A stretch of DNA of 32,000 nucleotides from Edaphobacter aggregans (lineage in GTDB: Bacteria; Acidobacteriota; Terriglobia; Terriglobales; Acidobacteriaceae), in NCBI RefSeq assembly GCF_003945235.1, contig NZ_RSDW01000001.1, forward strand, positions 4,260,001 to 4,292,000, read 5' to 3'. Shown here piece by piece: positions 670 to 29,485 of the stretch. The position numbers were made by a program, and so were the translations under genes. Below the pieces are notes generated by a model, which had not been told where the DNA came from, searched no databases, and saw only the letters and a program-made list of their open reading frames with translations. The first letter of the stretch is position 1. Every line of letters starts with the position of its first letter.

Positions 670-1976
670 CGCCAACCGACCCAATACCTTTCGACCCCGA
701 GTTGCTCGAGGTATATGGAATTATTCGAAGCACTCCCGCCTGGAAGGATGTGAAAGATTCCATGGCGCGCCTGGCCCCATTGCGCCAACCAGCGGCAAAG
801 CCATACGATCAGATGGACCTGGACCGGGACAACGTATTGCGGTATGCGGGAATCCTGCGCAATTCATCTGATTCCATAGCCTATGCGATCTGCTTAGCGG
901 CACACTTAGCCCGGTTTTCCAAGACGCAGGTATTCGAACAACGCCTGAATGAGGGGTTCCAGGCGCTCTCGACAGGGCTGGACCTCCCTGCTCTGGCCGA
1001 GGCCGACACCCGGACAGAGCTGGATCGATGCCTACGCGGAGTATTTCCGAACCAGAAGATTGAGCTGCCTTCGCTGCGTGCACCCGCTCCCGCTCCCGCG
1101 CCAGATGCTCCGCAGCAACCACGCCCAACATCCGAAACCCCCGATGTGGAATCTGCTGCCGCGCCCAGTGGGGACCCAGCCGCAGATGCGTGGCGCAACG
1201 CGCTGGAGAGAGTGCTCACCCAGATTCGGGACATGGACCCGCTGAATATCGATAGCGTGATTCAGAAGGCATACGATGTCTGGCAAGCTAGACTGATGGC
1301 CTTCTTATCGACCCAGCCTGAAGTCCCGCCCGACATCGATTATTTGCGCTGTCGTGCATTGAATCTACCGCCGGGGATGATCCTGCGAGGGCGTCTCAAG
1401 AACGTTAGCCTTCGCGAATGGAACGAGGCCTTCGTCGCCGGCATGTCGGAAACCGGTGTGACTTTCCCGGTTCCCCTTTGGTTTTCACTGGCAGCGCTTG
1501 GTGCGCTGGGGTTCGACGTTCCCCGAGATCTGAGTTCGGTTAAGTCAGCGGAGGAAAACAAAGCGGCTAGCGAGTTCATCTCGAAGATCCCACAGACTAG
1601 TCCCCCAAAAGGTCTGCTCATACTCCGGGTGACCGCCGAGTCACAGACTGCAGGCTGGAACATCTCCACTAGCATGCCAACCCTGATCATCACTCCCACA
1701 GACTTCCTCCGCGAAGGCAAGGCGAACCTGCAGTCTTATTTCCAGCCGAGACTGCACGGAGTCTTGATCGAGGTGGGCCGCGACGAGCAGCCGGCTGCAG
1801 CGTTAGCTCGCGCGAATGGCGCCGCAATCAAGGAAAAGCTTCCATCAGTACGATTGGGATTCTTGATGGCTGCGCAGCCTCAGAACGCAGTCCTGCCGTC
1901 GGGCTATAATAGTTTCGCAATAATGCCTACTGACGCGATGGATGCGTATACAAAGGCGTTCATGTCTACGTCATAA
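666..1976 (+). CDS. hypothetical protein with central Ala/Pro-rich linker
   Basis: 436-aa ORF. GGAG at 655-658 lies 7 nt upstream of GTG 666. GTGA overlap with the upstream ORF. Linker APAPAPAPDAPQQPRP is encoded around 1080-1170. No catalytic or family motif recognised. Confidence 0.55.
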   Translation: MTPTDPIPFDPELLEVYGIIRSTPAWKDVKDSMARLAPLRQPAAKPYDQMDLDRDNVLRYAGILRNSSDSIAYAICLAAHLARFSKTQVFEQRLNEGFQALSTGLDLPALAEADTRTELDRCLRGVFPNQKIELPSLRAPAPAPAPDAPQQPRPTSETPDVESAAAPSGDPAADAWRNALERVLTQIRDMDPLNIDSVIQKAYDVWQARLMAFLSTQPEVPPDIDYLRCRALNLPPGMILRGRLKNVSLREWNEAFVAGMSETGVTFPVPLWFSLAALGALGFDVPRDLSSVKSAEENKAASEFISKIPQTSPPKGLLILRVTAESQTAGWNISTSMPTLIITPTDFLREGKANLQSYFQPRLHGVLIEVGRDEQPAAALARANGAAIKEKLPSVRLGFLMAAQPQNAVLPSGYNSFAIMPTDAMDAYTKAFMSTS

Positions 1977-2065
1977 AAAAGCACAGCTGTTCCCCTTTGA
2001 TGAGGATGGCGGATCCCTCTTTTTCACTTGGCATCACCTTGACACCAAAACCGCTTTCTTCCAAG

Positions 2066-2188
2066 CATAGAAAAGAGCACTGAGGAGCCGTAGTGGACGA
2101 TTGCGTGTTCCGGTACTGACACGAAGATCGAGGCTAGGCTGCCCCCGATCATCCGAGCCAGCCTTACCTTCGAGGATCTTTTTCGTTG
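2066..2188. repeat. Left arm of composite repeat module, copy A (paired with 17143..17266)
   Basis: By-eye alignment to 17143..17266 is collinear over ~123 nt with roughly three quarters of positions identical, e.g. gcactgaggag, tactgacacgaa, atcgag, ccccgat, cttcgaggat. One minus-strand frame gives a similar peptide in both copies (GKAG..RGQ.SLD.RVS.G.R.R.LRLLSAL). Confidence 0.8.
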
Positions 2189-2214
2189 CTACAACGAGTG
2201 GATGCAATCGCCGG

Positions 2215-2574
2215 TTAAACAGTGCCTCCGAGATTCGATTTTCGGAGCGGCTCGAATGACAACTGCTCCCGAACGGCCTCTGGAATGGTTAGTGAGCGAA
2301 GCAAGTTGGGAGAGATTTTTGCAACTTCCGGCGTTCCAGGACGAAGTCGGGGGAGCTTCGGTGTATTCATTCGCTGGCCGCTTCGAACCTTAGCCCAGTA
2401 CCCTCGTGCAGGAACGGGGACTTGCAGCTTGCGACGCACCTTCGCCAGCGCCACGTCGGAGACGTTGTGGCGTTTCGCGAGAATCGACATGGGCTCTTCC
2501 CATACCTCTTTATAGAGGTGCCGCGGTGAACGGCAATAGATTGCATGGAGTGACAATACAACACAAAACACCAC
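2215..2574 (-). CDS. HTH-like hypothetical protein with LY.EVW..PM....GVSDVALAK..RKL..P.P.RGYWAK motif, probably truncated or frameshifted
   Basis: The translation contains HLYKEVWEEPMSILAKRHNVSDVALAKVRRKLQVPVPARGYWAK. I recognise this as a recurrent N-terminal motif of uncharacterised bacterial proteins but cannot name the family. The real start is probably internal. The ORF stops at 2212-2214 while a second minus frame stays open to 2034 and carries the conserved repeat peptide. Confidence 0.45.
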   Translation of the reverse strand: MVFCVVLSLHAIYCRSPRHLYKEVWEEPMSILAKRHNVSDVALAKVRRKLQVPVPARGYWAKVRSGQRMNTPKLPRLRPGTPEVAKISPNLLRSLTIPEAVREQLSFEPLRKSNLGGTV

Positions 2575-2691
2575 TTCGCGCCTCGAAGGCGGAATCTGAC
2601 GAGGGACTTTGTTGTTGAATTGATCGGATTCGCATCACATTCATTATCAACGACTTACGGATGATGTATTGGCCTGCGATAAACGCTGTTT

Positions 2692-2918
2692 GGCGGGAAT
2701 TTGGCCATATGCGTAAATTCGCTGCGGAGATTCAGCCTTATGGGGGTGCGCCACTTCGGCCTTATGGGGTTTGAGAACCTGCAAGTCATTGAAACAAGAG
2801 CGGGGCAAGTTCAACCTTATGTGCAAACCCACACCCCTGTGGGTTTACGAATAAGGTTGAAGTTGGACCCCATAAGGTTGAAGTCAACACCCCATAAGGC
2901 GAAAGTTCTTATGGGGTG
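2692..2918. repeat. Iteron-like cluster A: four direct copies of TTCArCCTTATG(G/t)G(G/c) plus three inverted copies and one further direct copy
   Basis: Direct cores CC(T/A)TATG start at 2705, 2736, 2760 and 2815. Inverted copies are aataaggttgaa 2850-2862, ccccataaggttgaa 2868-2882 and ccccataaggcgaaa 2890-2904. A further direct copy gttcttatgggg lies at 2905-2916. The perfectly conserved block aagtcattgaaacaa is at 2783-2797. Collinear with 17667..17806. Confidence 0.85.
2825..2846. other. Perfect 9-bp stem / 4-nt loop hairpin directly after iteron 4 (copy A)
   Basis: aaacccaca cccc tgtgggttt; the two arms are exact reverse complements. Confidence 0.7.
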
Positions 2919-3028
2919 TGCGTTTGTCATAACACTATCTTTGGAAATCCTGCCGGGTCCTATCGTTTGGACGATGCAGTAGGCTATCGCGTGGCACGCA
3001 ATGCGTCGCCTTAGATGGACACTTATGC

Positions 3029-3319
3029 TTGTCCCTCGCTGAGAAAACCATCGACGATATGCTGACAGAACTTGGAATCAAGCATCAGAAGGAATCCCCT
3101 TATCCTGAAGGCCGATTCCGATGTGATTTTCTCGTTGGATCAACCTATATTGAATATTTCGGTTTGCGAGGAAACCCAGAATACGATGTCCGCATACAAG
3201 AAAAGCTGGATCTTTGCCAACGGCTTGGTTTGAGCCTGCTTGTCATCTATCCGGAGGACCTTGTTGATAGTGCCGTCCTCCGACATAGACTGCTAGGGAT
3301 TCAGGGAGGGGCCAATTAG
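3029..3319 (+). CDS. small stand-alone restriction-endonuclease-like (PD-(D/E)xK / Vsr-DUF559-like) protein
   Basis: 96-aa ORF. RFRCDFLVGSTYIEYFGL....K..L.....G..LLVIYPEDL resembles the D-x(n)-(I/V)E-x-x-G core of endonuclease-fold domains. TTG start with no clear SD (alternative ATG at 3059). The function call is tentative. Confidence 0.45.
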   Translation: MSLAEKTIDDMLTELGIKHQKESPYPEGRFRCDFLVGSTYIEYFGLRGNPEYDVRIQEKLDLCQRLGLSLLVIYPEDLVDSAVLRHRLLGIQGGAN

Positions 3320-3556: not shown

Positions 3557-5026
3557 TTAGTTACTTTTTGGAGGAAAGTAAACCGAGATTACGGCGCCTC
3601 TCGGCTTGAATGGCCATATGCGCGGCTTATAGGGCGTTTCGAATCGAAGTTCGATGTCGGTCCCTGGCACTCTCTTTCGCTGATTGTCGAGGACCATCTC
3701 TACTTGAGTGGTAACTCCACAACCATCTGTCTGAATCCCCGCTTTCTTCAGGGTAACCGAGGTAATCTCGAGTGCGAGTTGACAGTCGTTGCCTCCTTGC
3801 GTCGCGACGACCGTGTCCCGTCTCTTGGTGTATAGAGACTTGTCGAGGCGAAAGGGCTTCGGCTGAGAATCTAAATAGCCGCTGTAGCTCTTCATGTAGT
3901 CGGCATAACTCTTTGAGGTGCTGTTACGCGATAGTGCTACTGCCTGATTCAAAGAGATAACCGGAATCGCTGGTCCTTTTGGGTCCGCTGGATTGGGGAT
4001 GCTGCCAGGAACAGGCCCAAACGATTGGGCGATGCTGTCAACGCTTGCTTGGATTGTTGGAATAAGACGCGGTGGAATGTCCTGGCTGACTCCCTTGGGC
4101 GCAGGTGCGCCAGGCGAAGGAAGCGGTTGAGCGAGCCCATTGGCGATCTGATGAAGATACTGTTCGATCATGCCAGGCTGGCCCCACTTTACGCTGTTCG
4201 TCAGAACGGTGTAGTTCTTTTGTAGAGTTTGCAACGAGACGGATTGGTCCACTATAGTCTGGTTGATCGAGCTGATCTGTTTGGATTGTTGTTGAAATTG
4301 CACATTTAGGGTGGCGGAATCGGTTCTCAAGTCACCGAGTTGATCTCCCTGTCCGGTCACCTGTACGTCTAGGCGGCCTAAATCGGCTCCGAATACGTTC
4401 TGCACTTGGATCTGATGCGCGATGTTGTTGAGCGCGGCAGTAACTTTGTCATTGTTAGCAGGCGACTCCTCCATAGACCCCCCACCAGACACGGAGGGCA
4501 GCAAATGGACCGTAGCTCCGCCCACAAGTAGCGCGGCGAGGATAGAAGCGAGCAGCGTAGCATTACTGTGCTTTCCGCCAGCCGAAATCAAAGCATCCCG
4601 AATTTTGCCCAGGATAGCTGCAATTCTGCCTGCCTGCGAGGATCGAACTCGCATTGGTGGGATGCGCAATTCGTTGAGCGCCTCCTTCAAGATTAAGCCG
4701 AACCGTGGGTCATCGACGGCTTGTGCCCAGACCACGCGACCCGCCACGTATGGCGCAAGTGAGTCTGAATAGCCGGGGCATGAATCCTGAATCGCCTTTG
4801 TGATCTTTGCCTTGCCCATTGGCGTCTTGTACAAGTCGTCGTAGATGCTTACGAGCAACGGGTTTGAGGCGATGGTGTCCATCAGATCGTCGTCCGGTAT
4901 ACGGTCACTGGTCAATTTCTCACTGACCAACGCACGAAAATAGTCGTCCGAGGCGGCCCGGTCGGTCCACGGTCTTACTTCTGATTCCTGGATCTCAGGC
5001 ACGTCTGGCATCAGCGGCTTCCCCAT
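3557..5026 (-). CDS. membrane-anchored coiled-coil / Pro-rich protein (TolA/TonB-like layout), function unknown
   Basis: 489 aa. N-terminal ~150-aa soluble part, one hydrophobic helix (ATLLASILAALLVGGATVHLL), a Q/N/L-rich heptad-like region, a Pro-rich stretch (PLPSPGAPAPKG...PVPGSIPNPADPKGPAIPV) and a C-terminal ~130-aa domain. It overlaps the lipase stop (4995-4997) by 32 nt, or by 17 nt if the ATG at 5011 is used, which is preceded by GGGGAA. Confidence 0.7.
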   Translation of the reverse strand: MGKPLMPDVPEIQESEVRPWTDRAASDDYFRALVSEKLTSDRIPDDDLMDTIASNPLLVSIYDDLYKTPMGKAKITKAIQDSCPGYSDSLAPYVAGRVVWAQAVDDPRFGLILKEALNELRIPPMRVRSSQAGRIAAILGKIRDALISAGGKHSNATLLASILAALLVGGATVHLLPSVSGGGSMEESPANNDKVTAALNNIAHQIQVQNVFGADLGRLDVQVTGQGDQLGDLRTDSATLNVQFQQQSKQISSINQTIVDQSVSLQTLQKNYTVLTNSVKWGQPGMIEQYLHQIANGLAQPLPSPGAPAPKGVSQDIPPRLIPTIQASVDSIAQSFGPVPGSIPNPADPKGPAIPVISLNQAVALSRNSTSKSYADYMKSYSGYLDSQPKPFRLDKSLYTKRRDTVVATQGGNDCQLALEITSVTLKKAGIQTDGCGVTTQVEMVLDNQRKRVPGTDIELRFETPYKPRIWPFKPRGAVISVYFPPKSN

Positions 5027-8000
5027 GAGAGTGGTTCAAGATGATCTCTCGGACATCCTTTCGATTCTGAATCCATTCGGCGGCGGTTCCCTTCCAGCCT
5101 CGTGGCGGAGTTGCAATTGGAATAGGCTGTACTGTACCTGGCTGATCGAGATAGTTCTTTAGGCAGCTCGTTGCCGTTTCGCGACCAAGCAAGCGATAGG
5201 CCTCAAACTGCGATTCATCGAACCATTGGTTGATCGTCGTCTCGTGCGGGAACTGTGCATTATCGCGGTCGAAGCTCTTGACGATAACCGAGCTTGCGCT
5301 TGCGACGGCCGGCTTCAGGTACAAAATGGTTCCCGACGAGCCATCGTTGTACTCGATACTGCCGATCGCGTACGAAGAGCGATTAAACTTCGAGTCGCCG
5401 TAGCTGAGTAGTCCGTCCGTGGGCAACGTAATGTTCGCACCAAAGTTGATTTGACATAGTTCCATGGCGTTGACCAGGTCCTCAAAGCGATAGTGAGGGT
5501 CGCAGTCTGCATCGCATAGAATGATTACTTTGCACTTACGGCGAACCAGCTCAAACAGGCCAAGATTCTCAAAATGGCCGCCATCGGAGAGATAGATGTA
5601 CTCACTCTTATCCGTGGCCTGCGCAAACAGTTCGTCGAGCATCGGCTTGAGTCCTGTCTTAGGACCCTCATCACATCTCGTACTGCGGTTGCGCGGATTG
5701 CCGAGCCACCAACCCAAGCGAACGTTGGCCGCTGTCATCAGTGCTGCAACAGCGGGCGAGGTATGGGCTCCTTCGTTCGGGCTCTGCGCCCCTCCTGAAA
5801 TCGCCATCGCGCTGCCTAGCGTAATGCTGTTCGAACTCTCCTGCGAGTCCGTCAGGGAAAGGGCAGGAGTGCCTTTCGAGGAGCAGAAGTCAGTCTTGAT
5901 CAATCCCGATTTTGCCAAAGGATCGTTCGAATCCAGCTGCTCGTCGGGGGAAGGGTAGCGGATATACCCGCAATAAACAGGCGAGAAAATAAAATTCATT
6001 GCCCGCCGTTTCTGCAAATCCAAGTTCCCGCTCTTGGTCACATTGAGAGTGCAATTGATGATAGGAAATGGTCCGTCAAATTTGTTGGATTCTGCTCGTT
6101 GAAGCGGGTCGACCTTTTCACCCTGATCTTCTTCTTGCTTCGCATCGGCAGTCAGCGATGCCATCGTGATGGTGGGTGCGCCGGTGCCTGCGCTCGCCGC
6201 GAGGTAGCACTCAATCAGGCGAAATCGATACACGTTGTGCAGCGATAGCCGGTTGACGTCGATCATCCGGCCCAACACAACAAGAAGGGCGACGGAGACC
6301 GCCAGAAAGATGTACTCCGGGCGTAGCCATACCTTCAATTGTTGGGGGATATAGCCTTCAACAGTCGCTAACAGCAAGTGGTTCAGGCTTGACAAGAGAA
6401 TTAAGAGTCCTAAGAGGAAGACGTACGGCGCAACGCGCGCCAGGAATCCCATGAACTGGTATTGGTCCCCACTAGGTTTCACCCTAACTATCCATGGTGT
6501 GGGATTGGACTCGGACGGAGCGGGCCCCCCAGTCTTTCCACTGTATGCGCTTAGCACGCCACCCACGGTAGTGAGAATCCAGCCCAAAAGAGCCGTAGCC
6601 CCTGGGAGTTTGTAGCCCCCGCGCAGATTGTATAGGTGCGGACCGACCCGCGCCATGAACTCAGGCCACAACAGTGCGAGCGACGCGACTCCGAGCCAAC
6701 CCAGAGTAAGAATGGCGGTGTCTCCCCATATGCGATTCAGCCACTCCTGTGCAGATGATTGAAAGGGTAAAAGAGCCATGCCTGCTGATGCCATTAACAC
6801 ATATGCCAGAAGCAGCAAAAGCGGAGCGGACGCTGCCGATAACAAGAGACCCGTCTCGAAATGATCGCCCAGGTCAAAGAATCGCGCGAGGAGGAAGGAT
6901 GATGCCCAAAAGCACAGCATGCCGATAATACCTGTACATACGAGCGAGACAATGGGTCTCCACCGATCGCTCGATTGAAGCCTCTTCAGCAGGCCCGGGA
7001 ATGCCCCAACCCGGTACGTAAAAAAGACCACGCATAGAAAAGAGATGAGAAAAAATCCCCACGGAATGGCAGGGTGGTAGCCCGAAACATAGTCAAGGCG
7101 TCGGGCGAGGCCCACTCCAACTACAACCGGCCCGAATAGCAGAACAGCAAAGAAAGTAGTAAAGGCGTGCTTTGCCGCCGCTCGTCGTGAAGCCGTGGCG
7201 TCCTTTGGGTTATAGCCTAACCCTGAGGGGAAAAGCATTATGAATAGTCCCGCTCCAGCGAAGAGTCGGATGCGCCACGCTGTACTAATCCAGTGAGGAT
7301 CCTCAGGAAGTCGCCAACTATAAGACTGAAGGCGACTAGCCTGCTTATCAAGACCATCGGTAAGAGATTTGAGCATCTTCAGGGCCGACCGCGGAAGTGC
7401 CTGAGCATCATCAAGAATCGGTAGGTCAGTGACGATACTCTGCACGACTTCGTTGACAGCTTTCGATTGTCTTTCTTCCGCCGATAGTACCTCTCCACAG
7501 GGTGGAACGTGTGCGGTACCTTCGTGTAGTTGGCCACTGGCAATAGATAGAGGAAACCAGCGGCAAAGATCATTCTTCACGGATTCCAGCGTTGCTACTG
7601 CCTCTGGATTGGGTCTTCCGTTGGAGCCGAGAATCTGCTCGTATCCCTTGCTGATACTGTTTCCGACCTCATTCATTGCGCGTGTTGTCGCTTGGTCCAC
7701 CTTAAGATCCGGAATGCAATCTATATCTGATATCGACTTACAGGCCGCCAGCTCCGCCGAGGTAAGCTTGGCTTTAAGATCGGCAAGAGACGCTTTCACT
7801 ACCCATCCTTCGCCCGGGTAGTAGGGACTCTTGTCTAGAAAGGTTCGCATCTTGTCTTCCAGCACACTGCGGGGCACGTCTGGAGATTGACTCGAACCCG
7901 ATTTCTGTCTTAGCTCAAGCTCGTTTCTCAGAGCCGTCAATGCCGTCTCAACGCTCTGGTCCACATAGAGAGAGGGTTTCGTGCGGAACGCTTCGAGGTG

Positions 8001-8798
8001 ATTGATTTTTTCGAGGAGCAGTTTCTCTTCAGGCGATACTGAATCCGGTTTCATTTGTTTGCTCGATTGTGCGGAGGCCATTGCCGCTTGAAGCTCAAGC
8101 GTCTGTCGGACGACCGCTCCAAACGCATTATCGCGGTCATCATCGAAGGTTCCAGTATGCCCAATACCCTTCAATTCTTCTCCGACATCACGCCGTAGTT
8201 GTAGATTGAGGCTGTTCGCTGCCTTGCGTGCATATTCTCCTGAGGTCATCTTGAAGAGGTCTCGCGCGATATAGGGAGCAACTACCAGGATCAAGGCCAG
8301 GAGGGCGACAAAGAGAAGGTTAGGGAGCAGACGGAGCACATATGCGGCGACTGCCGTCCATACGTCGCTGCTCATCAGACCGCGCTGCGGTGTTAGATAG
8401 CTGCTGTAGCGGCGTAGATGGGTGACGGGAAGCTGATCTCGGTAACGATCTGCTGCATTACCCTGCTTATTCTCGTCGGCCAACGCTTTCGCCACATGGC
8501 CAATTCCATCCTTCCGAATCCATGAAGCAAGCCAAGAATTGATATAACTCCCACCCGATACGGAAGAGATATATCCAATCCGATGTAATAGACCGAAAGA
8601 CGCGAAAGCCTGGAGAACTCCGAGGTTAAAGGTGGCACTACGTATTCCTCCCCCTGAGAAAGCCACGCCAATCGCTCGGTCCGGCGGCGCTTGCGGGTCA
8701 CGCCGTTTACGAACGTTCTCGAACCAGGTTTGCTCTCCAGAGAGCAATATCGACTCGATGGATTTGAGATCCTGCTCCGTACCACCCCGTTCTTCCAT
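4995..8798 (-). CDS. patatin/cPLA2-like phospholipase with a very large membrane-embedded insertion
   Basis: 1267 aa. Motifs: FSGGGIRS (G49-G-G-x-R53), SVSGGS (Ser81 codon 8556-8558) and LSDGGHFENLG (Asp1072 codon 5583-5585). About 10 hydrophobic 20-30-aa segments and a ~320-aa charged helical region lie between them. GGAG lies 9 nt upstream of the ATG at 8798. Confidence 0.88.
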   Translation of the reverse strand: MEERGGTEQDLKSIESILLSGEQTWFENVRKRRDPQAPPDRAIGVAFSGGGIRSATFNLGVLQAFASFGLLHRIGYISSVSGGSYINSWLASWIRKDGIGHVAKALADENKQGNAADRYRDQLPVTHLRRYSSYLTPQRGLMSSDVWTAVAAYVLRLLPNLLFVALLALILVVAPYIARDLFKMTSGEYARKAANSLNLQLRRDVGEELKGIGHTGTFDDDRDNAFGAVVRQTLELQAAMASAQSSKQMKPDSVSPEEKLLLEKINHLEAFRTKPSLYVDQSVETALTALRNELELRQKSGSSQSPDVPRSVLEDKMRTFLDKSPYYPGEGWVVKASLADLKAKLTSAELAACKSISDIDCIPDLKVDQATTRAMNEVGNSISKGYEQILGSNGRPNPEAVATLESVKNDLCRWFPLSIASGQLHEGTAHVPPCGEVLSAEERQSKAVNEVVQSIVTDLPILDDAQALPRSALKMLKSLTDGLDKQASRLQSYSWRLPEDPHWISTAWRIRLFAGAGLFIMLFPSGLGYNPKDATASRRAAAKHAFTTFFAVLLFGPVVVGVGLARRLDYVSGYHPAIPWGFFLISFLCVVFFTYRVGAFPGLLKRLQSSDRWRPIVSLVCTGIIGMLCFWASSFLLARFFDLGDHFETGLLLSAASAPLLLLLAYVLMASAGMALLPFQSSAQEWLNRIWGDTAILTLGWLGVASLALLWPEFMARVGPHLYNLRGGYKLPGATALLGWILTTVGGVLSAYSGKTGGPAPSESNPTPWIVRVKPSGDQYQFMGFLARVAPYVFLLGLLILLSSLNHLLLATVEGYIPQQLKVWLRPEYIFLAVSVALLVVLGRMIDVNRLSLHNVYRFRLIECYLAASAGTGAPTITMASLTADAKQEEDQGEKVDPLQRAESNKFDGPFPIINCTLNVTKSGNLDLQKRRAMNFIFSPVYCGYIRYPSPDEQLDSNDPLAKSGLIKTDFCSSKGTPALSLTDSQESSNSITLGSAMAISGGAQSPNEGAHTSPAVAALMTAANVRLGWWLGNPRNRSTRCDEGPKTGLKPMLDELFAQATDKSEYIYLSDGGHFENLGLFELVRRKCKVIILCDADCDPHYRFEDLVNAMELCQINFGANITLPTDGLLSYGDSKFNRSSYAIGSIEYNDGSSGTILYLKPAVASASSVIVKSFDRDNAQFPHETTINQWFDESQFEAYRLLGRETATSCLKNYLDQPGTVQPIPIATPPRGWKGTAAEWIQNRKDVREIILNHSHGEAADARRA

Positions 8799-9177
8799 AG
8801 TTGATTACTCCGTATATTTCTGCATTCCTATTCGCCGCTGGCAGCTTCAGACATGCCTTATCGTCGTCACTGCCCTCCATGATCTTCTGGCACTTTCCAC
8901 TGCGAGGCGGGTACTCGCCGAAAGGACATAGGGCGTCCGGGGTAGCCCAGTAGGAAGCGCTCATGGAGCTACGCGGGCCCAAATGGGCTATCTTCCCACC
9001 AAGGTAAAGAATCACAGGAAACAACATGCCAATGATGACGACGGTGAAAACGAAGCCGAAAGTATGTTCCTTGGATCTGATCTGAGACTGGACGTGGGAC
9101 GATAGTTCGCCTCCTGGGATAAGAGCGCGGCCCACTTCTGCTGAGTTCCGGAAATGGGAACACCTCTCTTGTGTCAA
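8707..9177 (-). CDS. possible small single-pass membrane protein
   Basis: 156-aa ORF with a TTG start and no clear SD. One hydrophobic helix (FGFVFTVVIIGMLFPVILYLGG). The last 92 nt overlap the well-supported lipase start in another frame, so this call is uncertain. Confidence 0.3.
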   Translation of the reverse strand: MTQERCSHFRNSAEVGRALIPGGELSSHVQSQIRSKEHTFGFVFTVVIIGMLFPVILYLGGKIAHLGPRSSMSASYWATPDALCPFGEYPPRSGKCQKIMEGSDDDKACLKLPAANRNAEIYGVINYGRTGWYGAGSQIHRVDIALWRANLVRERS

Positions 9178-9226
9178 CGTAGCTCGGCGTTCACGGCAAC
9201 ACCGCTAGGCGTCACTCTTCGTTGGG

Positions 9227-10852
9227 CTATTTAGGCGCTAAGATGCTGTTTAGTGCCGACAGGTCATAACTGAAGCCAAACTGCCCTTTCCAGTCACTGT
9301 CGCTAAGCAGATCAGTTTTATTAGACCATTTAACAGCAACGGGGATAGAGGCGCCCTTACCAATGTTGAAGACCAACTTCGTCTGAGCGATACTCAACCA
9401 ACCGGGTGTACTAGTAAAGACCTGTGAGTTGGATGGAACCGAGATGTTAGTTCCGGGCACTACATTTGCTACGGTTATATTGAGGACATTGGCGGTGTAC
9501 TGATACTGTCCATAACCAGCAAGACTAAAAATCGCGCGTGGAGCACTCTTGTCTTTGCCGAAAGGGTGGTCATACTCTCCAGTGAACTGATAATCCTTAA
9601 CTTTGCCGTACTTCGCGCCTGGCGGAATTGTTGCGAACCATGAGCCGGCTACGTTGAACGTAAGCTGGTCGCCGCTCTTCTGCCACACATATGCGAAGAC
9701 GGCGGTCGCATCGTGTGTGGCTGGTTTGCCAGTAGGTGTGGAATAGGTATAGCTAAGCGTCGCGAAAGTGCCACGTGCTTGTTGAAGAATATTATCGCGA
9801 AGGGTTTTCAATTTAGCTAGGTCCGCACCAACCGCTACAATATTCTGCTCATAGTTCGGCCCCGCGTTCGACTTCAATGCTGCGACGTACACCGTCATGT
9901 ATGCAATGAAGTCGTCCACGAACTTGTCAAAATTATTTTCAGCCTCGTCCTGTTCTGCGGCATGCTGCCAGTCAGCACGTGCTGCAACGACTTTCGAATC
10001 ACCATTCACTTTGTCGGAATTTGGAAATGCCTTCTGGTAGTCCGTGTAAAGCTGGTTTGATGCGTTTGTAATTGCGGTTTGGGTATCCTTATCGCCGATT
10101 GCTTTGTTCCAAGCACTAACGAATTTCGTTGAGGTCGGGTTATACCGCCGGTTGATGGTTCTGCTCACACTGAGCGAACTGAACGACACATTATTTGATG
10201 GGATAAGAACACTGAGGATGTCAGTGGGTGTAGTAGAAGTCGCCTGGCCTGTGGTAGATGCAGCAGCCGAGCCGCTCTGGGCAACATTGAACGTGGCGGC
10301 AAGGGTGAAAGGCTGCAGTATTTTATCTGCGGTCTTGGGTCCTTGCGCTGTGGCAGCGAAATTATCACCCGAAAGATAACGGCGCAGACCATTCATGTTT
10401 GCCCTCGCCGTCAGAGTAGTACCGTTAACTGTTTGGGTGAAAGCGCCCGATTCAGCTGCTAGCGATATTAGGTCAGTCGTCGTGGGCTTTGCCCCCAGGC
10501 TGGTCGATCCACTTGCACTCGTGTTCGCTCCGGCTTGGGGAACCGCTGCCTTCGTGGAAATAACTTGTGCTACTTGGTTAGCTGCGGCTTGTAACACAGT
10601 TGCTCCGAAGGCCGCGTCGAAAAGAACACTTACAGTTGGTATTGGCTGGTTAAGAGGGTCCAAGAGGGTAGGTTCTGCGCCGCCCTTCGCAAATCTTTGG
10701 TCTTTAAACTCTTTCTGAAGTATTCCGCAAAATGAGCTGGCGATCTTTCCTTTCTGGTCGCAAGTGCTTTGTGGGGATTGAGCTGATGCCCCAGAACTTT
10801 GCAGAGATACTAATAACGCGAAAGCCAACTGCAGTCTGACGGGTAACTTCAT
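9227..10852 (-). CDS. secreted protein with beta-barrel-like C-terminal region, function unknown
   Basis: From the second Met the N-terminus is MKLPVRLQLAFALLVSLQSSGASA|QSP, a classic signal peptide with an AxA site, and GAGG lies 6 nt upstream of the ATG at 10852. The track start at 10897 is the alternative. The last ~190 aa show alternating hydrophobic strands (AIFSLAGYGQYQY, KLVFNIG, IPVAVKWSN, WKGQFGFSYDL). Confidence 0.7.
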   Translation of the reverse strand: MKLPVRLQLAFALLVSLQSSGASAQSPQSTCDQKGKIASSFCGILQKEFKDQRFAKGGAEPTLLDPLNQPIPTVSVLFDAAFGATVLQAAANQVAQVISTKAAVPQAGANTSASGSTSLGAKPTTTDLISLAAESGAFTQTVNGTTLTARANMNGLRRYLSGDNFAATAQGPKTADKILQPFTLAATFNVAQSGSAAASTTGQATSTTPTDILSVLIPSNNVSFSSLSVSRTINRRYNPTSTKFVSAWNKAIGDKDTQTAITNASNQLYTDYQKAFPNSDKVNGDSKVVAARADWQHAAEQDEAENNFDKFVDDFIAYMTVYVAALKSNAGPNYEQNIVAVGADLAKLKTLRDNILQQARGTFATLSYTYSTPTGKPATHDATAVFAYVWQKSGDQLTFNVAGSWFATIPPGAKYGKVKDYQFTGEYDHPFGKDKSAPRAIFSLAGYGQYQYTANVLNITVANVVPGTNISVPSNSQVFTSTPGWLSIAQTKLVFNIGKGASIPVAVKWSNKTDLLSDSDWKGQFGFSYDLSALNSILAPK

Positions 10853-10920
10853 AAACGACCTCACTGGAATGGGTTTAAGACCGTGGGCTGTGAGCATTTG
10901 AGCGCATGGGGTGGACGCTA

Positions 10921-11277
10921 CTAAGCGCCTAAGATGTTGGGGCTCCAGATAGCCAAACCGCCAAAAAATTCGATATCACCTTCGAGTTCAAGCGGCGGCT
11001 TACCTACCGCACTTGGCGGCTGCTGGGCAGTCGCAAATCCATCCGTAGAGTTAGGCGAAAACAGAGTAATCTGCAGAAGATTGTTGCCAGCCAGGATGGT
11101 CAGATCAAATGTTTTCCCATCAACTTTGATCGGGACTGGGATTGGTCCGTTAGCGTTCGTTCCGTATAGCACGCTGACGATGCTGATGACGGTTGTTGGA
11201 TCATCGGGGACGATTTCGATCGTCTCGACTTTCCCTGTTGTGCTTTGCAGGTCACCTGGGACTTGCTGGAGTGCCAT
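10921..11277 (-). CDS. 118-aa beta-rich hypothetical protein, first gene of the lipase cluster
   Basis: GGAGAAAG lies 6 nt upstream of the ATG at 11277. No signal peptide and no recognised motif. The plus-strand ORF 10934..11293 is its shadow. Confidence 0.55.
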   Translation of the reverse strand: MALQQVPGDLQSTTGKVETIEIVPDDPTTVISIVSVLYGTNANGPIPVPIKVDGKTFDLTILAGNNLLQITLFSPNSTDGFATAQQPPSAVGKPPLELEGDIEFFGGLAIWSPNILGA

Positions 11278-11904
11278 GGCTTTCTCCGATTGAAATTACT
11301 CTGCTTGAAAATAGGGTTGTAAGAATTTGAGACGCAATCCGGAAAAAGGGAGGAGTACTCGGTCTAATATGACGACCTAGTCCGCGTGGGCACATAAGGT
11401 GATCACAATGAGCTTCACGTTTCTCCGTAAATCCGAAGTCCCAAATCAATGGCGATGCATTTGCTGTCTGTCAAACAAGAGAACGAGGCAAACGAGGCAT
11501 TTCCTTTTGTAAAAAAAAAGAAAAAGTGTGGAACATTCCTAGTGTCTGCAAAAACTGTTCGATCACCTTCGGAGTGGGTAGCTACTGTGGTGGGGTCCAG
11601 CCGCCGTGAGTATTTATTGGTTTGCCATCCTCAACGAAAAATCGCTCGGCTACTAAGCCGACGTCCCAATAGTGCGAGCGGCAGTTCCTTCACTTGACAC
11701 CGTTGCAGTGCAAATTACGGTGCTCCTGGTTATCGACAATCCTTCATCTGCTAAGCGAAGGCCGCTTACTTGATACCGGAGAGGTGCGATGGGCCGGAGA
11801 AATCAACCGAGCTTGAGCGCTGGCAAACCTGCGTAAACCAAAAAAATTAGCCACAAATGAGGCCACTCGTCCTACAATGATTTCGTCAACCACTAAGCAA
11901 TCGA

Positions 11905-12552
11905 ATGACCACGAACCCGCTCGCTGCTGCAGAGATCGTCAAAGCATGCTTGGAGTCCGAGAATGAGACGCCGTGGACGACATTCGTTCAGTATTTCCAG
12001 CCTCTGATTGCGTCTAGTGTCTCCCGCGTTCTCCGACGCTACGGTCACGCGAACCCGTCTTTGGCCGATGACCTAATCCAAGAGACCTATCTTCGCCTTT
12101 GCAGAGATAATTGCCGAGTCCTCCGGGACTTTCAGGCGAAGCATGACGAAGCCATCTTTGGCTATATCAAGGTCATCGCCACATCAGTTGCGCTAGATCA
12201 CTTTCGCGCCCGCGCCACTCACAAGCGCCGGGGCGAAGTCGAAGACGACGGCACAAATCTCGAAGGCAGCACAGCTTCTTCCACCATTGAGCAAAGCTTG
12301 CTTCTCAAAGAACTCGATCGACGTCTGGCATCCACTGAGAATGAACGCGACCGTACGATTTTCTGGCTCTACTACCGTCAAGGTTATACCGCACGAGACA
12401 TTGCAGCGGTTCCCCAATTTAGGCTCACGCAAAAGGGTGTCGAAAGCTGTATCTACCGCCTCACACAATCTCTCCGCGATGCTGTCAGCAGTAAAGGTCC
12501 GGGTTTTACAAAAGGATTGCCGCCTCAAAATACGTTAGGAGTCATGAAATGA
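11905..12552 (+). CDS. ECF-type sigma-70 family RNA polymerase sigma factor
   Basis: 215 aa. Region 2-like DDLIQETYLRLCRD and region 4 HTH-like YRQGYTARDIAAV...LTQKGVESCIYRLTQSLR. Stop TGA 12550-12552 overlaps the next ATG (ATGA). Confidence 0.85.
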   Translation: MTTNPLAAAEIVKACLESENETPWTTFVQYFQPLIASSVSRVLRRYGHANPSLADDLIQETYLRLCRDNCRVLRDFQAKHDEAIFGYIKVIATSVALDHFRARATHKRRGEVEDDGTNLEGSTASSTIEQSLLLKELDRRLASTENERDRTIFWLYYRQGYTARDIAAVPQFRLTQKGVESCIYRLTQSLRDAVSSKGPGFTKGLPPQNTLGVMK

Positions 12553-15500
12553 GACCGCTGGAAGATCACCTCAGCCCGCAGGAGCTGGCTAGTCTTCCGG
12601 AATCACCGGAGGCTCTTGTATCTGTCGAGCAACAGGAGTCGACACGACATATCCAGCAGTGCGAAGCGTGCCACAACCTGGCGATGACTTACTGGAAGCT
12701 CCGGAGTCTCCACATAACGACTGGGGTTGTTGTCAGTAGCGACACCTGCCCTATTGAAAGCATTTGGCTCGAGTTAGCTGCGGGCTTTCGCTCTGAGCAA
12801 TCGCTGTCTCTACTGGCCCACGCAGCAAGTTGTAGCGTCTGTTCAACCCTTCTGCGAGAAGCAATGGACCTCATACAGTTTGACCAACTCGACGCATCGG
12901 GCGAAGCAGGGGAACTTATAGAAAATCTCTCCAGTGACAGGCCCGAATGGCAACATCGTATCGCCGAGCAGATGATGGTGGCCTCAGGCGCATCCCCTGC
13001 AGCAAAAGGCATCCGGGCGAAGCCCGCCACCGGCGTTCCAAGACTCAATTTTATTCATCGCCTACGCCATAGATCAGTGTGGATAACTCTGCCTGCAGCC
13101 GCTTTCGTACTCGGCGTTGTCGTCATGACTGGCGTCGCACTTTGGCGCACAATGCGCCCTTCAGAGGCCCGTTTGCTTGCGATCGCCTACAATAAGCAGC
13201 GGACAATGGTCTTGCGCATCCCGGGCGCCGATCCCGTTCCCCTTGCCTCGGGTACCCGTGGCTCCATGACGGGTCTCACCGACCCCACCGAGTTACTCGA
13301 ACTTCGGCTCCGCGCCCAAAAGCACCTCGATCAGACTCCCAACAGTTCCTATTGGCACCAGATCATGGGCGAGACTCAACTCCTCCAACAGGACGGCACT
13401 GCCGCCCGCCGCAGCTTCGAAATTGCCGAGACAACCAGTGAAAATCTTCCCGATCTCCGGCTGGACCTGGCGGCCGCCTGGTTTGAGATCGGAGATAAGA
13501 CTGGATCTGCCGAGGCCTACGCGGAAGCCGCGGAGCTTTATAGCAGGCTGCTTCGAGAAAAGCCCACAGACCCCGCACTCCTCTACTACAACCGCGCCCT
13601 TAGCTGGGAGCGTCAAAATCTAACTGAGAATGCCCTTGATGACCTTCGCGCGGCGCTACCCCTAGAGCGCTCGGCCGCCTGGCGCAAAGTGATCGAAGCG
13701 GAGATCGCCCGTCTTTCCGCGCAATCCTCCACAGTGACTACCGACGGTTACGAGATCTCACTCAACGTGGCCACGGAAAACCTTCTGCCTCATTGGAGCA
13801 ATTCCCCCGAAGCCCGAGCCAAGATCTCACAGACCGCCGCTCTCGGCCTCAGCCACCACGACCGTTGGCTATTCGACTGGATCGCCGCCAACCATTCCCC
13901 TATTAGTTTAGAAGCGGACTATCATCTCGCCGCGGCAGTTGCCTATGGTGAAGCCGGGGAAGCCGAATCATCTCTTACTGAAGCCCGCCGCGCAATTGAA
14001 CTTTACACAAGAGCCAACGAACATCCCGGGCTCCTCCGAGCCCAATTTGCCGAAATCTATGCCTTCCAACGGCTTGGGCGGGCGAAAGAATGCCTTCAAA
14101 GCATCGCAATCGTTAAGCCGAAAGCAGCTCTCAACAACTATGCATGGCTTCAATCGCAACTCTTCGTGGAACTAGGGGACTGTGAGGGACACATAGGCAA
14201 GTTTGAAGCAACTCAAGAGGATCTAGAACGCGCTCTTGCACTCAGTAAAGTCTTCGATCTACCTCTAATACGCTTGCGAGCTCTTAGCGCGGAGGCTTCG
14301 TTTCTTGACCTCCGCGGAATGACAACCTCTGCTTGGAGGCTTGATTCAATTGGACTACTACTATGCAGACAACTCGGATGTCCTCCCCTCCGGAGGTATG
14401 AGTTTATGTACAACATGGTTATGACTGCGGAGCGCCTTGAGTTGCCATTCGTCGCTGGGGATATCATGCGAACTGGAGCCCATCTCGCAGCGTTATTTCA
14501 AGACGCAACTGAGCATGCCTACGCATTGGAAACTCTGGGAACCGTTATTGGACAAGCTGGCGAGTACACGGAATCGACTCAAGCATTCACTCAGGCCCTC
14601 GCTATCGCTCGCGCTGGTAAACAAGGACCGATGTCCCCCCTTTATCAAGCCGACTGGCAAATAGATCGAGCTGAGATTCTCTCGCGCCAAGGAGCCCCCA
14701 AGGCAGCTTTGCGCCTACTCGAGCAAAATGGGCCAATTCTTCTCGCAAGTGATTATCAGCCCGCTCGCCTTCACTACCTGACCCAACTGGCGTCCGTAGA
14801 CCGGTCTCTTGGACACACAAACGAGGCGCTAACCAATAGTTGGATGGCTGTTCGCGAGGCCGAGCACTCTCTGGGCTCACTGCATACGACTACGGAACGT
14901 GAACAGTGGTCTCAGCAAAACAAAAAGGCATATGCCGAACTTGTCCGATGCTATCTCCAACTCGGAGAAGACACTGAAGCACTTCGAGCCTGGGAACGCT
15001 TTCGAAGCGCACCTTATATTTCAACGTCAACGGCAAACCTAATGAGAAGTTCGTCGAAGTCTACTTCGCCGAACACTATGGTGCTTGTTCTGGCTCGCAT
15101 TGATGACTCGTATATTGGCTGGATCGCCGTAGCTCATCCTCTCCGTGTTGTGCGAACAATATCACTCGGTGAGGGACCAAGATTACAGCAAATGGCAACG
15201 ATTTTCATTCGCCTTTGCTCTGATCCTAACTCCAATCTTAATGATGTCAAGGTCGTTGGTTCGCATCTGTATTCTTCTCTCCTCCAGCCATTAGGAATTC
15301 CACTAAACATCCCAAATCATCTTTGGATAGACGTAGATCCGAGTCTGGGAGCGATTCCCTTTTCTGCTCTCCTCCTTCCGAGTGGAGATTGGCTAGGTTC
15401 GTACTCCCAGATTAGCGTCCTACCAGCATGGTGGGTCCTTCATCCTGCAACCTCGTTTGAGGAACCCACTTTCACGTTTAACACGCACATGGTTGTTGCT

Positions 15501-16064
15501 AGCGGATTCGGTGCACATGAGTCTCTACAATCCCCGGTTGGCAGCTCAGAAGCGGCGGAGATCGCTCGGTTCTTCCCAGGAGCAACGCTGATAGACGGAC
15601 CCTCCGCCAACACTCAGGTGGTACTGCAGTCCATGAAGTCTGGCGACATCTTTCACTTTAGTGGTCATGCAACAAGTGAATCTGGTACACAACTTCTCTT
15701 GGGCTCATCAGATGGAGAGCGCCCTAACACTCTTACTGCCGGATCGATCGAATCGATCCACCTGCGCCACTGTAAGGTGGCAGTCCTTGCCGCATGCAAT
15801 ACGAACGCAGCAAATTCCGACCAAATTGAAAACTCCTCTGATCTCCGCAACGCGTTCCTTATCGCCGGAGCAAACTCAGTTGTCGCTAGTAACTGGGATG
15901 TTGACGACAAGAGCACCCATATTTTGATGATGGCCTTTTACAACCAGCTCGTTATCGGAGTTACCCCCGCTCAATCACTTCAAACCGCACAGCAGTCTTT
16001 GCGGAATGGATCAACCTGGCAACATCCCTATTACTGGGCCTCATTCGAGATCTTTACCAACTAA
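12549..16064 (+). CDS. anti-sigma (HxxxCxxC zinc motif) - TM - TPR - CHAT (caspase-like protease) fusion protein
   Basis: 1171 aa. AGGAG at 12537-12541 lies 7 nt upstream. HIQQCEAC (12648-12671) and HAASCSVC (12819-12842) both fit the ZAS HxxxCxxC pattern. TM helix VWITLPAAAFVLGVVVMTGVALW at ~13075-13146. Long helical repeat (TPR-like) region. C-terminal IFHFSGHA (His codon 15666-15668) and VAVLAACNT (Cys codon 15795-15797) match the CHAT His/Cys dyad context. Confidence 0.85.
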   Translation: MRPLEDHLSPQELASLPESPEALVSVEQQESTRHIQQCEACHNLAMTYWKLRSLHITTGVVVSSDTCPIESIWLELAAGFRSEQSLSLLAHAASCSVCSTLLREAMDLIQFDQLDASGEAGELIENLSSDRPEWQHRIAEQMMVASGASPAAKGIRAKPATGVPRLNFIHRLRHRSVWITLPAAAFVLGVVVMTGVALWRTMRPSEARLLAIAYNKQRTMVLRIPGADPVPLASGTRGSMTGLTDPTELLELRLRAQKHLDQTPNSSYWHQIMGETQLLQQDGTAARRSFEIAETTSENLPDLRLDLAAAWFEIGDKTGSAEAYAEAAELYSRLLREKPTDPALLYYNRALSWERQNLTENALDDLRAALPLERSAAWRKVIEAEIARLSAQSSTVTTDGYEISLNVATENLLPHWSNSPEARAKISQTAALGLSHHDRWLFDWIAANHSPISLEADYHLAAAVAYGEAGEAESSLTEARRAIELYTRANEHPGLLRAQFAEIYAFQRLGRAKECLQSIAIVKPKAALNNYAWLQSQLFVELGDCEGHIGKFEATQEDLERALALSKVFDLPLIRLRALSAEASFLDLRGMTTSAWRLDSIGLLLCRQLGCPPLRRYEFMYNMVMTAERLELPFVAGDIMRTGAHLAALFQDATEHAYALETLGTVIGQAGEYTESTQAFTQALAIARAGKQGPMSPLYQADWQIDRAEILSRQGAPKAALRLLEQNGPILLASDYQPARLHYLTQLASVDRSLGHTNEALTNSWMAVREAEHSLGSLHTTTEREQWSQQNKKAYAELVRCYLQLGEDTEALRAWERFRSAPYISTSTANLMRSSSKSTSPNTMVLVLARIDDSYIGWIAVAHPLRVVRTISLGEGPRLQQMATIFIRLCSDPNSNLNDVKVVGSHLYSSLLQPLGIPLNIPNHLWIDVDPSLGAIPFSALLLPSGDWLGSYSQISVLPAWWVLHPATSFEEPTFTFNTHMVVASGFGAHESLQSPVGSSEAAEIARFFPGATLIDGPSANTQVVLQSMKSGDIFHFSGHATSESGTQLLLGSSDGERPNTLTAGSIESIHLRHCKVAVLAACNTNAANSDQIENSSDLRNAFLIAGANSVVASNWDVDDKSTHILMMAFYNQLVIGVTPAQSLQTAQQSLRNGSTWQHPYYWASFEIFTN

Positions 16065-16082
16065 ATCCTATATTGGAGAACA

Positions 16083-20414: not shown

Positions 20415-20474
20415 TCCATTAGACCAGTCCATCCAACAGACAGTACCGATACGGTACCCATGGATTAATCGACA

Positions 20475-20490
20475 AGACAAACGTTTGTCT
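20475..20490. promoter_or_regulatory. Candidate LacI-type operator: perfect 16-bp palindrome AGACAAACGTTTGTCT
   Basis: Perfect palindrome with a central CG, 61 nt upstream of the ATG at 20414. It fits the general LacI/PurR-family operator shape (..AAACGTTT..). It is flanked by a second inverted pair, aatcga/tcgatt. Confidence 0.5.
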
Positions 20491-20599
20491 AAATCGATTG
20501 AATTCAATATAAGTACTGTCGTTTCCATGTGTCAAGAGAGGGAATCGGAAGGTATCTATTTCAGTGACGAATGGGGCGGGTGGCCCATATCTGAGCCGG

Positions 20600-24376: not shown

Positions 24377-24425
24377 GGTGGCACTCTTCGAGCTGTCGCC
24401 CTTGGTTCTCGAATAAACTAGCCGC

Positions 24426-24974: not shown

Positions 24975-25049
24975 ACCAGAGTCGGGCGACCTGCCGACTC
25001 GCTAAACCGTGGCGAACAAAGCACGAAGAAATCCGCGCTACAATACACC

Positions 25050-29483: not shown

Positions 29484-29485
29484 CG

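Follow-up and report, generated by a model that had tools for sequence, protein, structure and literature searches.

Within a 32,000-nucleotide stretch of the Edaphobacter aggregans genome (contig NZ_RSDW01000001.1, positions 4,260,001 to 4,292,000; hereafter the window, position 1 being its first letter), the minus-strand gene at 4995..8798 encodes a lipase-like protein of 1267 amino acids (aa; ATG start, from a list of open reading frames, ORFs) whose putative catalytic Ser and Asp lie on either side of a polytopic membrane domain. We propose that this protein is an integral inner-membrane Ser-Asp acyl hydrolase with a split catalytic domain facing the cytoplasm, and that it would receive lipid laterally from the bilayer, deacylate it and answer to lineage-specific regulators; we give this reading as a whole a probability of about 0.6. 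Conservation, structure prediction and co-evolution together indicate that the two halves reunite as one cPLA2-like catalytic domain. The split design is apparently undescribed, though the protein has been deposited under a generic name: a full-text search of a limited literature collection returned no description of a patatin/cPLA2 fold interrupted by membrane helices, and there is no Pfam, NCBIfam or PADLOC model for the membrane block or for the C-terminal half of the catalytic domain.

Two halves of a patatin-like catalytic domain

The product of 4995-8798 is identical over its full length (100% identity) to the NCBI entry 'patatin-like phospholipase [Edaphobacter aggregans]' (P0001). A preliminary description of this DNA, made from the letters alone, had read it as a patatin/cPLA2-type lipase whose dyad residues are about 990 positions apart and separated by a polytopic membrane domain. 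The motifs are all where it placed them, GGGIR at residues 49-53, SVSGG at 79-83 and SDGGHFENLG at 1071-1080, as are the codons of Ser81 (TCG, 8556-8558) and Asp1072 (GAT, 5583-5585), and ten hydrophobic helices lie between these two residues. The classification likewise holds up: the N-terminal half of the domain (N-half) has a profile match, the predicted structure matches the cPLA2 fold, all four patatin blocks, the third judged by motif resemblance only, are present and in order, and the dyad is invariant.

The N-half (aa 43-143; 8370..8672, on the minus strand like every part of this gene) runs from strand 1 through the oxyanion loop, strand 2 and the nucleophile elbow to a group of helices and a conserved RxYSxYLTP. 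The oxyanion or phosphate-binding loop G49-G-G-I-R53 (8640..8654) corresponds to patatin block I in its cPLA2-type form, GGGxR. The elbow S79-V-S81-G-G (8550..8564) takes the position of block II; across the family it deviates from the usual GxSxG in having Ser or Thr in place of the first Gly. Pfam Patatin (PF01734), which most homologues carry, matches only aa 46-122, corresponding to profile positions 2-70 of 191, and scores 26.9 bits with the full-length protein and 30.5 bits with the N-terminal 144 aa alone (cut-off 27.7). PLA2_B (PF01735) stays below its cut-off of 23 in both cases, with 12.9 bits for the full length and 18.4 bits for the N-half. When the protein and a profile of 101 family sequences are compared with the sequences of the PDB, the matches are to cPLA2 delta, cPLA2 alpha and VipD, around the GGGxR and nucleophile motifs.

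The C-terminal half of the domain (C-half; aa 849-1225, 5124..6254) opens with a conserved helix, DVNRLSLHNVYRFRLIECYLAAS, that follows the last transmembrane helix (TM10), and contains many invariant positions. Between the elbow and the Asp motif, on the C-terminal side, lies a fourth patatin-like block, AMAISGGAQSPNEG (aa 997-1010, from A997 to G1010; 5769..5810). Judged by motif resemblance only, its core AISGGAQSP (999-1007) would be the equivalent of block III; S1001, G1002, A1004, P1007 and G1010 are invariant in our alignment A1. Block IV is the catalytic Asp motif S-D1072-G-G-H-F-E-N-L-G (5559..5588). Searches with the C-terminal 390 aa gave no Pfam match at E<=10, and the family profile gave no patatin or cPLA2 match to PDB sequences in this half.

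Conservation of the catalytic residues is close to absolute. Ser81 and Asp1072 are invariant in two sets of homologues (101/101 and 140/140), and in an alignment of 307 sequences Ser81 is kept in 306 while Asp1072 and Arg53 are kept in all 307; the three glycines and the arginine of the loop are invariant in all three sets. Chance would not give conservation on this scale.

We modelled aa 40-1239 with AlphaFold 2 (AF2) from 101 homologues (mean predicted local distance difference test, pLDDT, 77.5; predicted TM-score, pTM, 0.73). Confidence is low only in a helical insert discussed below, with pLDDT of 83-96 in the N-half, 80-94 in the membrane block and 70-97 in the C-half, and about 95 at Ser81. 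In the model Ser81 comes directly after a strand (aa 74-80) and Asp1072 directly after another (aa 1067-1071), the arrangement found in the patatin fold. A Foldseek search of the model against the PDB places human cPLA2 alpha first (1cjy, E 6e-5, probability 1.0, 413 aligned columns); the cPLA2 alpha and delta matches together (1cjy, 5iz5) range from E 6e-5 to 9e-4 with 413-425 aligned columns, and VipD and ExoU follow far behind. The aligned range itself is not reported; alignments of this size cannot span an insert of some 700 aa, and their number of columns is near the length of the C-half (about 395 residues). We take the modelled C-half to be cPLA2-like by fold on the strength of this whole-model search (E 6e-5).

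Whether the two halves belong together can also be read from co-evolution. We applied mean-field direct-coupling analysis (DCA) to the N-half, the C-half and selected loop columns of 307 family members (effective number 256). Of the 30 strongest couplings 9 join the N-half to the C-half, as do 19 of the 100 strongest, and the highest score of such a pair is 3.35; permuting the N-half rows between sequences lowers these figures to 0/30 and 0-1/100, with maxima of 1.16-1.50. The couplings between halves are geometrically coherent: 74-1093 goes with 77-1090 (74 and 77 being strand residues) and 64-1209 with 67-1206 (64 and 67 being helix residues), 88-998 joins the helix after the nucleophile to the block III helix, and 44-1084 involves a residue of strand 1. 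That a lipase fold would have to assemble across the membrane module, as the preliminary description held, is supported by these couplings and by their loss on permutation. Because the invariance of the dyad, the pLDDT of 95 at Ser81 and the DCA couplings agree, we regard the halves as one catalytic domain; on the predictions (Foldseek and co-evolution) a single alpha/beta catalytic fold holds both dyad residues.

Could the gene be a chimera or fusion of two genes, or could its motifs be chance occurrences in a fold that is no lipase at all? The full-length Patatin score, just under the cut-off (26.9 versus 27.7), and the lack of a profile match in the C-half would be compatible with such an artefact. 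However, P0002, a 1275-aa homologue from a separate metagenome, is 71% identical to the window protein and colinear with it throughout, so that the lipase ORF is not an assembly chimera, and colinear full-length homologues are found in thousands of independent genomes and metagenomes. Moreover, profile evidence agrees with a patatin dyad that does not vary, the model has a cPLA2-like fold, and the halves are predicted to pack and do co-evolve. The artefact explanation is already refuted, and we give it next to no credence.

Membrane module and topology

Kyte-Doolittle hydropathy identifies one long hydrophobic stretch at aa 146-184 and nine more segments within aa 507-851 (nt ~6255-7280), in line with the roughly nine further segments of the preliminary description. 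A hairpin that it had placed at aa 145-178 does not survive: AF2 builds a single continuous helix (aa 144-211), i.e. an interfacial helix plus one transmembrane (TM) helix. Hydropathy, AF2 and DCA together delimit an interfacial amphipathic helix at aa 144-156, with conserved D145 and W147, followed by TM1 at aa 157-180 (8259..8369), and hydropathy and AF2 delimit a TM2-TM10 block at aa 507-848 (6255..7280). We count one plus nine, that is ten, passes because the two halves can meet only if the number of passes is even.

Modelled alone (aa 500-880), the membrane block reaches a mean pLDDT of 82.4 and a pTM of 0.74. Foldseek finds nothing credible for it among PDB folds (best E 0.44, probability <=0.38, TM-score <=0.27), and a Pfam scan assigns it to no family. 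We also considered a claudin/PMP22-like identity for this region (6252-7283), suggested by MP20 (9cbv, E 1.1e-4 with the family profile, high bias) and by Pfam Claudin_3 (E 0.045). We rejected it: these matches probably reflect amino-acid composition, because a Foldseek search with the membrane-block model returns no such protein.

Conserved positions of the membrane block concentrate in loops predicted to be cytoplasmic, as an E-W-x-x-R pattern between TM6 and TM7 (E685-W-L-N-R-I-W-G-D693, nt 6720-6746, in the window protein) and a GKSxxTG-type pattern between TM8 and TM9 (here GKTGG). By DCA, the interfacial helix (aa 144-149) couples with the TM6-TM7 loop (aa 681-696, including 692-696) and with aa 856 after TM10, and residue 88, near the nucleophile, couples with residue 753 in the TM8-TM9 loop. 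These links suggest a conserved juxtamembrane collar that would join the bilayer to the active site.

On which side of the membrane does the catalytic domain lie? Under the ten-helix topology, the summed mean of Lys and Arg over 101 sequences is 18.75 for the catalytic-side loops versus 4.3 for the opposite-side loops. A signal peptide is missing from the window protein, and in 233 of 240 relatives nothing hydrophobic precedes the N-half, although 40 to over 600 aa separate it from the N-terminus across the family; the few relatives with such a segment carry an additional N-terminal module of several helices. Because of the positive-inside pattern and the missing signal peptide, the catalytic domain is probably cytoplasmic, and our best reading is an N-in/C-in topology in which an insert in the TM1-TM2 loop would be periplasmic.

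Some members sit uneasily with this topology. PG_binding_1, S8/S53 peptidase and DUF1080 domains, which are usually extracytoplasmic, occur here on the side predicted to be cytoplasmic. If the topology were inverted, the catalytic domain would be periplasmic, its targets would be outer-leaflet lipids of the inner membrane or else lipids of the periplasm or outer membrane, and these domains would be where they are usually found. The charge bias of the loops and the absence of a signal peptide or TM helix before the N-half, in the window protein as in the 233 relatives, argue against it, and we consider inversion improbable. The members concerned are P0058, P0067 and P0119, with PG_binding_1/2 and S8/S53 peptidase domains at N-termini that lack signal peptides, and P0161, P0192 and P0258, with DUF1080 (3-keto-disaccharide hydrolase) lectin-like domains in the TM2-TM3 loop (aa ~250-440). 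Lying in that loop, on the catalytic side, the DUF1080 domains lend no support to a periplasmic TM1-TM2 loop. In P0216, P0170, P0159 and P0167 an N-terminal module of 240-290 aa with about 5-6 hydrophobic helices is followed by a linker of ~100-230 aa that leads to the lipase N-half.

A proposed mechanism

How might such an enzyme work? In the mechanism that we favour, the ten-helix module is inserted between patatin blocks II and III, where it fills the chain position, from Ser to Asp, of the cPLA2 cap or lid, and the N-half (GGGxR and Ser81) and C-half (block III and Asp1072) would come together at the same face of the membrane, most likely the cytoplasmic one. Four conserved elements would make up the collar: the helix at the interface (aa 144-156), the TM6-TM7 loop with its EWxxR pattern (aa 685-693), the TM8-TM9 loop of GKSxxTG type (aa 746-757) and the helix that follows TM10 (aa 847-869). 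A glycerolipid of the cytoplasmic leaflet could then reach the dyad laterally, with the enzyme staying in the membrane, and would be deacylated by chemistry of the phospholipase A, phospholipase B or lysophospholipase type. In the Edaphobacter lineage, a putatively periplasmic 326-aa helical domain and a single-pass partner might modulate this activity. The preliminary description had suggested a membrane-substrate-coupled or gated phospholipase, a reasonable conjecture.

Several observations weigh against this proposal. The C-half lacks a sequence-level match to any patatin or cPLA2 profile. Permuting the N-half rows removes phylogenetic signal along with any structural signal, and AF2 and DCA draw on overlapping information. 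PG_binding_1 and S8/S53 peptidase domains at N-termini, and the DUF1080 lectin-like domain, stand on the catalytic side in some members. Finally, the clade of the window protein occurs in variable neighbourhoods, with NACHT proteins, an OLD nuclease, CHAT and C11 proteases, and a type IV secretion system (T4SS) with an integrase.

The nature of the chemistry deserves separate consideration. Several members of the patatin/cPLA2 group act as transacylases or N-acyltransferases (cPLA2 epsilon, cPLA2 gamma, PNPLA1 and PNPLA3), and the fold is common to FabD acyl transferases. With an active site apparently linked to an extensive, conserved hydrophobic module and to the collar at the membrane face, the window protein might similarly be a membrane-embedded transacylase or acyltransferase, moving an acyl chain from a membrane lipid to another acceptor in a chamber that the membrane module helps to form and that is shielded from water. 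Sequence does not tell hydrolysis from transfer, and we identified no acceptor-binding feature and no acyl-carrier partner. One family member, P0248, the only such member noted, carries a C-terminal glycerophosphodiesterase (GDPD) domain (aa 1398-1629), a fusion that fits deacylation followed by cleavage of the diester and hence hydrolytic breakdown better than transfer. We consider a transacylase unlikely and retain acyl hydrolysis as the preferred reading.

A widespread family

The split design proves to be very widespread, and it goes only by the generic label 'patatin-like phospholipase'. A word-indexed search with the window protein returned at least 1367 matches, the best 120 of which are all 859-1596 aa long with E<1e-107. 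Against 1.84 billion representatives, a profile found 27,739 matches at E<=1e-3; the number is 18,517 when E<=1e-10 is required and 11,154 when E<=1e-30 is, the last figure meaning that the family comprises at least 11,154 clusters at 50% identity. Scanning species-representative genomes confirmed at least 583 relatives. Those listed come from Acidobacteriota, Bacteroidota, Alpha-, Beta- and Gammaproteobacteria, Verrucomicrobiota, Planctomycetota, Nitrospirota and Chlorobi; relatives also occur on 42 plasmid or megaplasmid records, and a search of phage genomes found none.

Across the family, Ser and Asp are 478-999 aa apart with a median of 685-688 aa, and 7-13 hydrophobic segments (mode 9-10) lie between them. 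The spacing of about 990 aa noted in the preliminary description is thus right for the window protein and peculiar to its lineage. A Rhizobium-type subfamily of ~837 aa keeps the split design with a membrane insert that is shorter and different; it has about 6-7 hydrophobic segments, Ser and Asp are ~520 aa apart, and tblastn with the window protein detects the C-half alone. Examples lie on Rhizobium and Phyllobacterium megaplasmids (L085 2675-5188 and L086 2693-5212).

At the other end of the chain, about a quarter of the members (77 of 307) have a C-terminal extension of at least 150 aa, a conserved region which reaches ~300 aa in P0047, P0066, P0067, P0110, P0113 and P0119, for example. It contains a W-Y-P-P-S...H-P-D-N-R-G-W-M-N-L-F motif and ends in an R-x-x-G-x-x/A-like stretch reminiscent of GNAT acetyltransferases; the extension has no Pfam match, and the window protein lacks it.

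Helical insert and partner gene of the window lineage

What sets the window protein apart is the loop between TM1 and TM2. The preliminary description had noted a charged helical region of about 320 aa, and such a region exists: it spans aa 181-506 (7281..8258), is 326 aa long and predicted to be periplasmic, and is all-helical in the AF2 model at low to moderate pLDDT. It is a lineage-specific loop insert and no part of the family core, since of 307 sequences only three have it, namely the window protein and its two closest relatives, P0002 and P0003; in the rest of the family the median length of this loop is 18-21 aa. The insert has four Cys and a net charge of -7, and has no Pfam or PDB sequence match.

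Directly downstream, the start of a gene for a protein of 484-489 aa (3557..5026, minus strand) overlaps the lipase stop codon. Its product, the partner, comprises a conserved N-terminal domain, one TM helix (~aa 157-178), a coiled coil and, at the C-terminus, a domain in which two Cys are invariant. Homologues of the partner lie immediately downstream of the lipase at five loci of the same clade (L001, L002, L003, L087 and L089). The partner is absent from the wider family, in which clustering of neighbours at 80 genome loci reveals no conserved partner or operon. It has no Pfam, NCBIfam or PADLOC identity and only coiled-coil noise in the PDB, and searches of large sequence databases return itself and one orthologue only, with no plasmid matches. 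The helical insert and the coupled partner are likely regulators of the lipase.

A stronger version of this idea is a trans-envelope, signal-gated lipase, in which the helical insert and the coiled-coil partner would sense periplasmic events and the ten-helix module would act as a transducer, coupling these events to the opening of the cytoplasm-facing active site towards the cell's own inner membrane. We regard this as rather unlikely, if worth keeping in view. If true, a single polypeptide would serve as sensor, transducer and executioner for envelope stress or for attack by phages or competitors, and in thousands of other bacteria this membrane module would be at work with sensors of other kinds attached.

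Genomic neighbourhoods and biological role

Does the enzyme remodel lipids in the steady state, or is it a membrane-destroying effector triggered by stress or attack? The evidence is split, because one subfamily is syntenic in the core genome while the window clade is found in island-like contexts.

The core-genome case is a large subfamily with a conserved block of ZapA, OmpA, a TonB-like receptor, the lipase, YmdB, DnaA and DnaN; this neighbourhood near dnaA-dnaN fits a housekeeping role in lipid metabolism. Other family members occur in ordinary metabolic contexts. The window clade, sampled at seven loci, presents a different picture. L087 has as neighbours an extracytoplasmic function (ECF) sigma factor, a Peptidase_C11 protein and an OLD-type nuclease (OLD-TOPRIM/AAA_15), L089 a NACHT-HEAT protein and L088 a Tle1-like lipase, and at L003 the lipase-partner pair is accompanied by T4SS genes and an integrase, as well as by another paralogue of the family. 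These variable neighbourhoods, rich in conflict genes, hint at a role in conflict or stress rather than housekeeping.

In the window itself, an ECF sigma factor gene (11905-12552, plus strand; Pfam) is transcribed divergently from the lipase and overlaps the start of a gene for a TPR-CHAT (caspase-like) protein of 1171 aa (12549-16064, plus strand; Pfam). The sigma factor is 36% identical (E 2.6e-46) to the one beside the L087 lipase-partner pair, and the CHAT protein shows, at its N-terminus, a match to a 334-aa protein of L087 (E 5e-8). The sigma/TPR-CHAT pair (11905..16064) is possibly associated with the lipase; an association is not established.

Taken in one direction, these contexts would make the lipase a normally silent effector of an envelope-stress or conflict module, similar to abortive infection, that is unleashed on the cell's own inner membrane. 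The trigger might be sensing by the periplasmic helical insert, by the partner or by both, or the neighbouring ECF sigma factor might switch the gene on. Several features agree with this: a translationally coupled partner conserved only in the window clade; the clade's NACHT-HEAT, OLD-TOPRIM/AAA_15, Peptidase_C11, TPR-CHAT, Tle1-like lipase and T4SS-plus-integrase neighbours; an ECF sigma factor beside the operon in both the window and L087; and N-terminal, C-terminal and loop accessory domains that vary strongly across the family. Patatin effectors are, moreover, already known, CapV in CBASS being an example (PMC12480259). On the other hand, PADLOC gives no relevant match for the lipase, its partner or its neighbours bar one weak candidate match, phage genomes hold no relatives, the 80 loci of the wider family share no neighbour, one subfamily is syntenic near dnaA, and the suggestive neighbourhoods come from seven loci only. 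We think an effector role possible, if on balance doubtful; the enzyme itself would be the same acyl hydrolase in either case.

Other genes in and around the lipase loci

Upstream of the lipase, and on the same strand, lie a gene for a Ser/Thr/Ala-rich protein of 556 aa with a signal-peptide-like N-terminus (9227-10897, minus) and an ORF of 118 aa (10921-11277, minus). Over its last 160 aa the larger protein resembles, weakly, a 585-aa protein upstream of the L087 lipase (E 6.7e-6); the gene is not conserved on the contig of the closest homologue (L001). Beyond the TPR-CHAT gene, a 337-aa ORF without a family match completes a plus-strand trio (11905-17096). A 399-aa ORF at 17988-19187 (plus) weakly matches the PADLOC candidate family PDC-M36A (E 1.7e-4), and a 160-aa ORF at 20046-20528 (minus) has a LacI-type helix-turn-helix (E 3.6e-8) and falls short of a full LacI regulator. 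At 21488-22267 (minus) lies a gene for a protein with a PagL-like lipid A 3-O-deacylase domain (Pfam E 4e-8), a second lipid-deacylating enzyme that is unlinked to the first as far as tested. No tRNA gene and no cyclase (CD-NTase) was found in the window, and promoter and terminator scans gave nothing informative.

G+C content is ~0.45-0.59 in the first 24 kb, which include the lipase, and rises to 0.62-0.66 across an Lhr-type helicase gene (25050-29483), where GC skew is strongly negative; the shift at ~24000-29500 may mark an island boundary.

Among the related loci, L087 has its ECF sigma factor, 334-aa protein and Peptidase_C11 at 46-3173, beside the lipase-partner pair. At L003 the paralogue, a split lipase of 1171 aa (6180-9695, plus), comes directly after the pair and is adjoined, on the 9620-12669 side, by the conjugation genes VirB4, VirB3 and TrbC and a phage-type integrase. 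This setting points to an integrative conjugative element as the carrier.

Comparison with known systems

A central question for characterised patatin and cPLA2 enzymes is how a soluble enzyme reaches its membrane substrate, the problem of interfacial activation. The split family would answer it differently, with a membrane module of no matched fold at the position of the cPLA2 cap. A study of the family would define a class of integral-membrane enzymes that remodel lipids or destroy membranes, and would add a membrane-protein fold and a natural case of domain reassembly across an insertion of ~600-1000 residues; as such it should interest lipid enzymologists and structural biologists of membrane proteins.

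Of the systems compared, the group IV enzymes (1CJY for cPLA2 alpha, 5IZ5 for cPLA2 delta) share with the window protein the GGGxR loop, the Ser-Asp dyad and a large insertion from Ser to Asp, and are its best matches both by sequence (N-half) and by fold (model). In cPLA2 this insertion is a soluble cap with a lid, and membrane binding is left to a separate C2 domain; the window protein has no C2 domain and has membrane helices, ten of them, in the cap position, and with its sub-threshold PLA2_B score falls outside the PLA2_B family proper. Spacing differs as well, at 321 aa in cPLA2 (S228, D549) versus 478-999 aa in the split family, whose [S/T]-V-S-G-G elbow is also unlike that of cPLA2.

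Soluble patatins such as Pat17, ExoU, VipD, CapV of CBASS and RssA/YchK have four conserved blocks in the order seen here, where the third is recognised by motif resemblance only; the window protein matches VipD weakly by sequence, and VipD and ExoU weakly by fold. Unlike the window protein, they are compact, are activated by cofactors or second messengers and are not known to have membrane helices inside the fold, and their dyad residues are ~120-215 aa apart. PADLOC finds no CapV-type or other defence patatin here.

A patatin domain joined to a membrane part, as in the window protein, is also found in the type Vd autotransporters PlpD (PMC11116518) and FplA and in NTE/PNPLA6. Those proteins, however, are end-to-end fusions in which an uninterrupted patatin domain is joined to its membrane part (an outer-membrane beta-barrel with POTRA in the one case, an N-terminal TM helix in the other), whereas here an alpha-helical module interrupts the fold. 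The window protein is no type Vd autotransporter, having an alpha-helical membrane part and neither a signal peptide nor a POTRA or Omp85 match.

In concept there are parallels among membrane-anchored bacterial phospholipases of other folds. PlaF of Pseudomonas aeruginosa and OMPLA/PldA are held in the membrane, receive their substrate by lateral diffusion and remodel glycerophospholipids. PlaF is an alpha/beta-hydrolase with a single TM helix and OMPLA/PldA an outer-membrane beta-barrel; these catalytic folds are unrelated, and neither enzyme is known to be homologous to the window protein.

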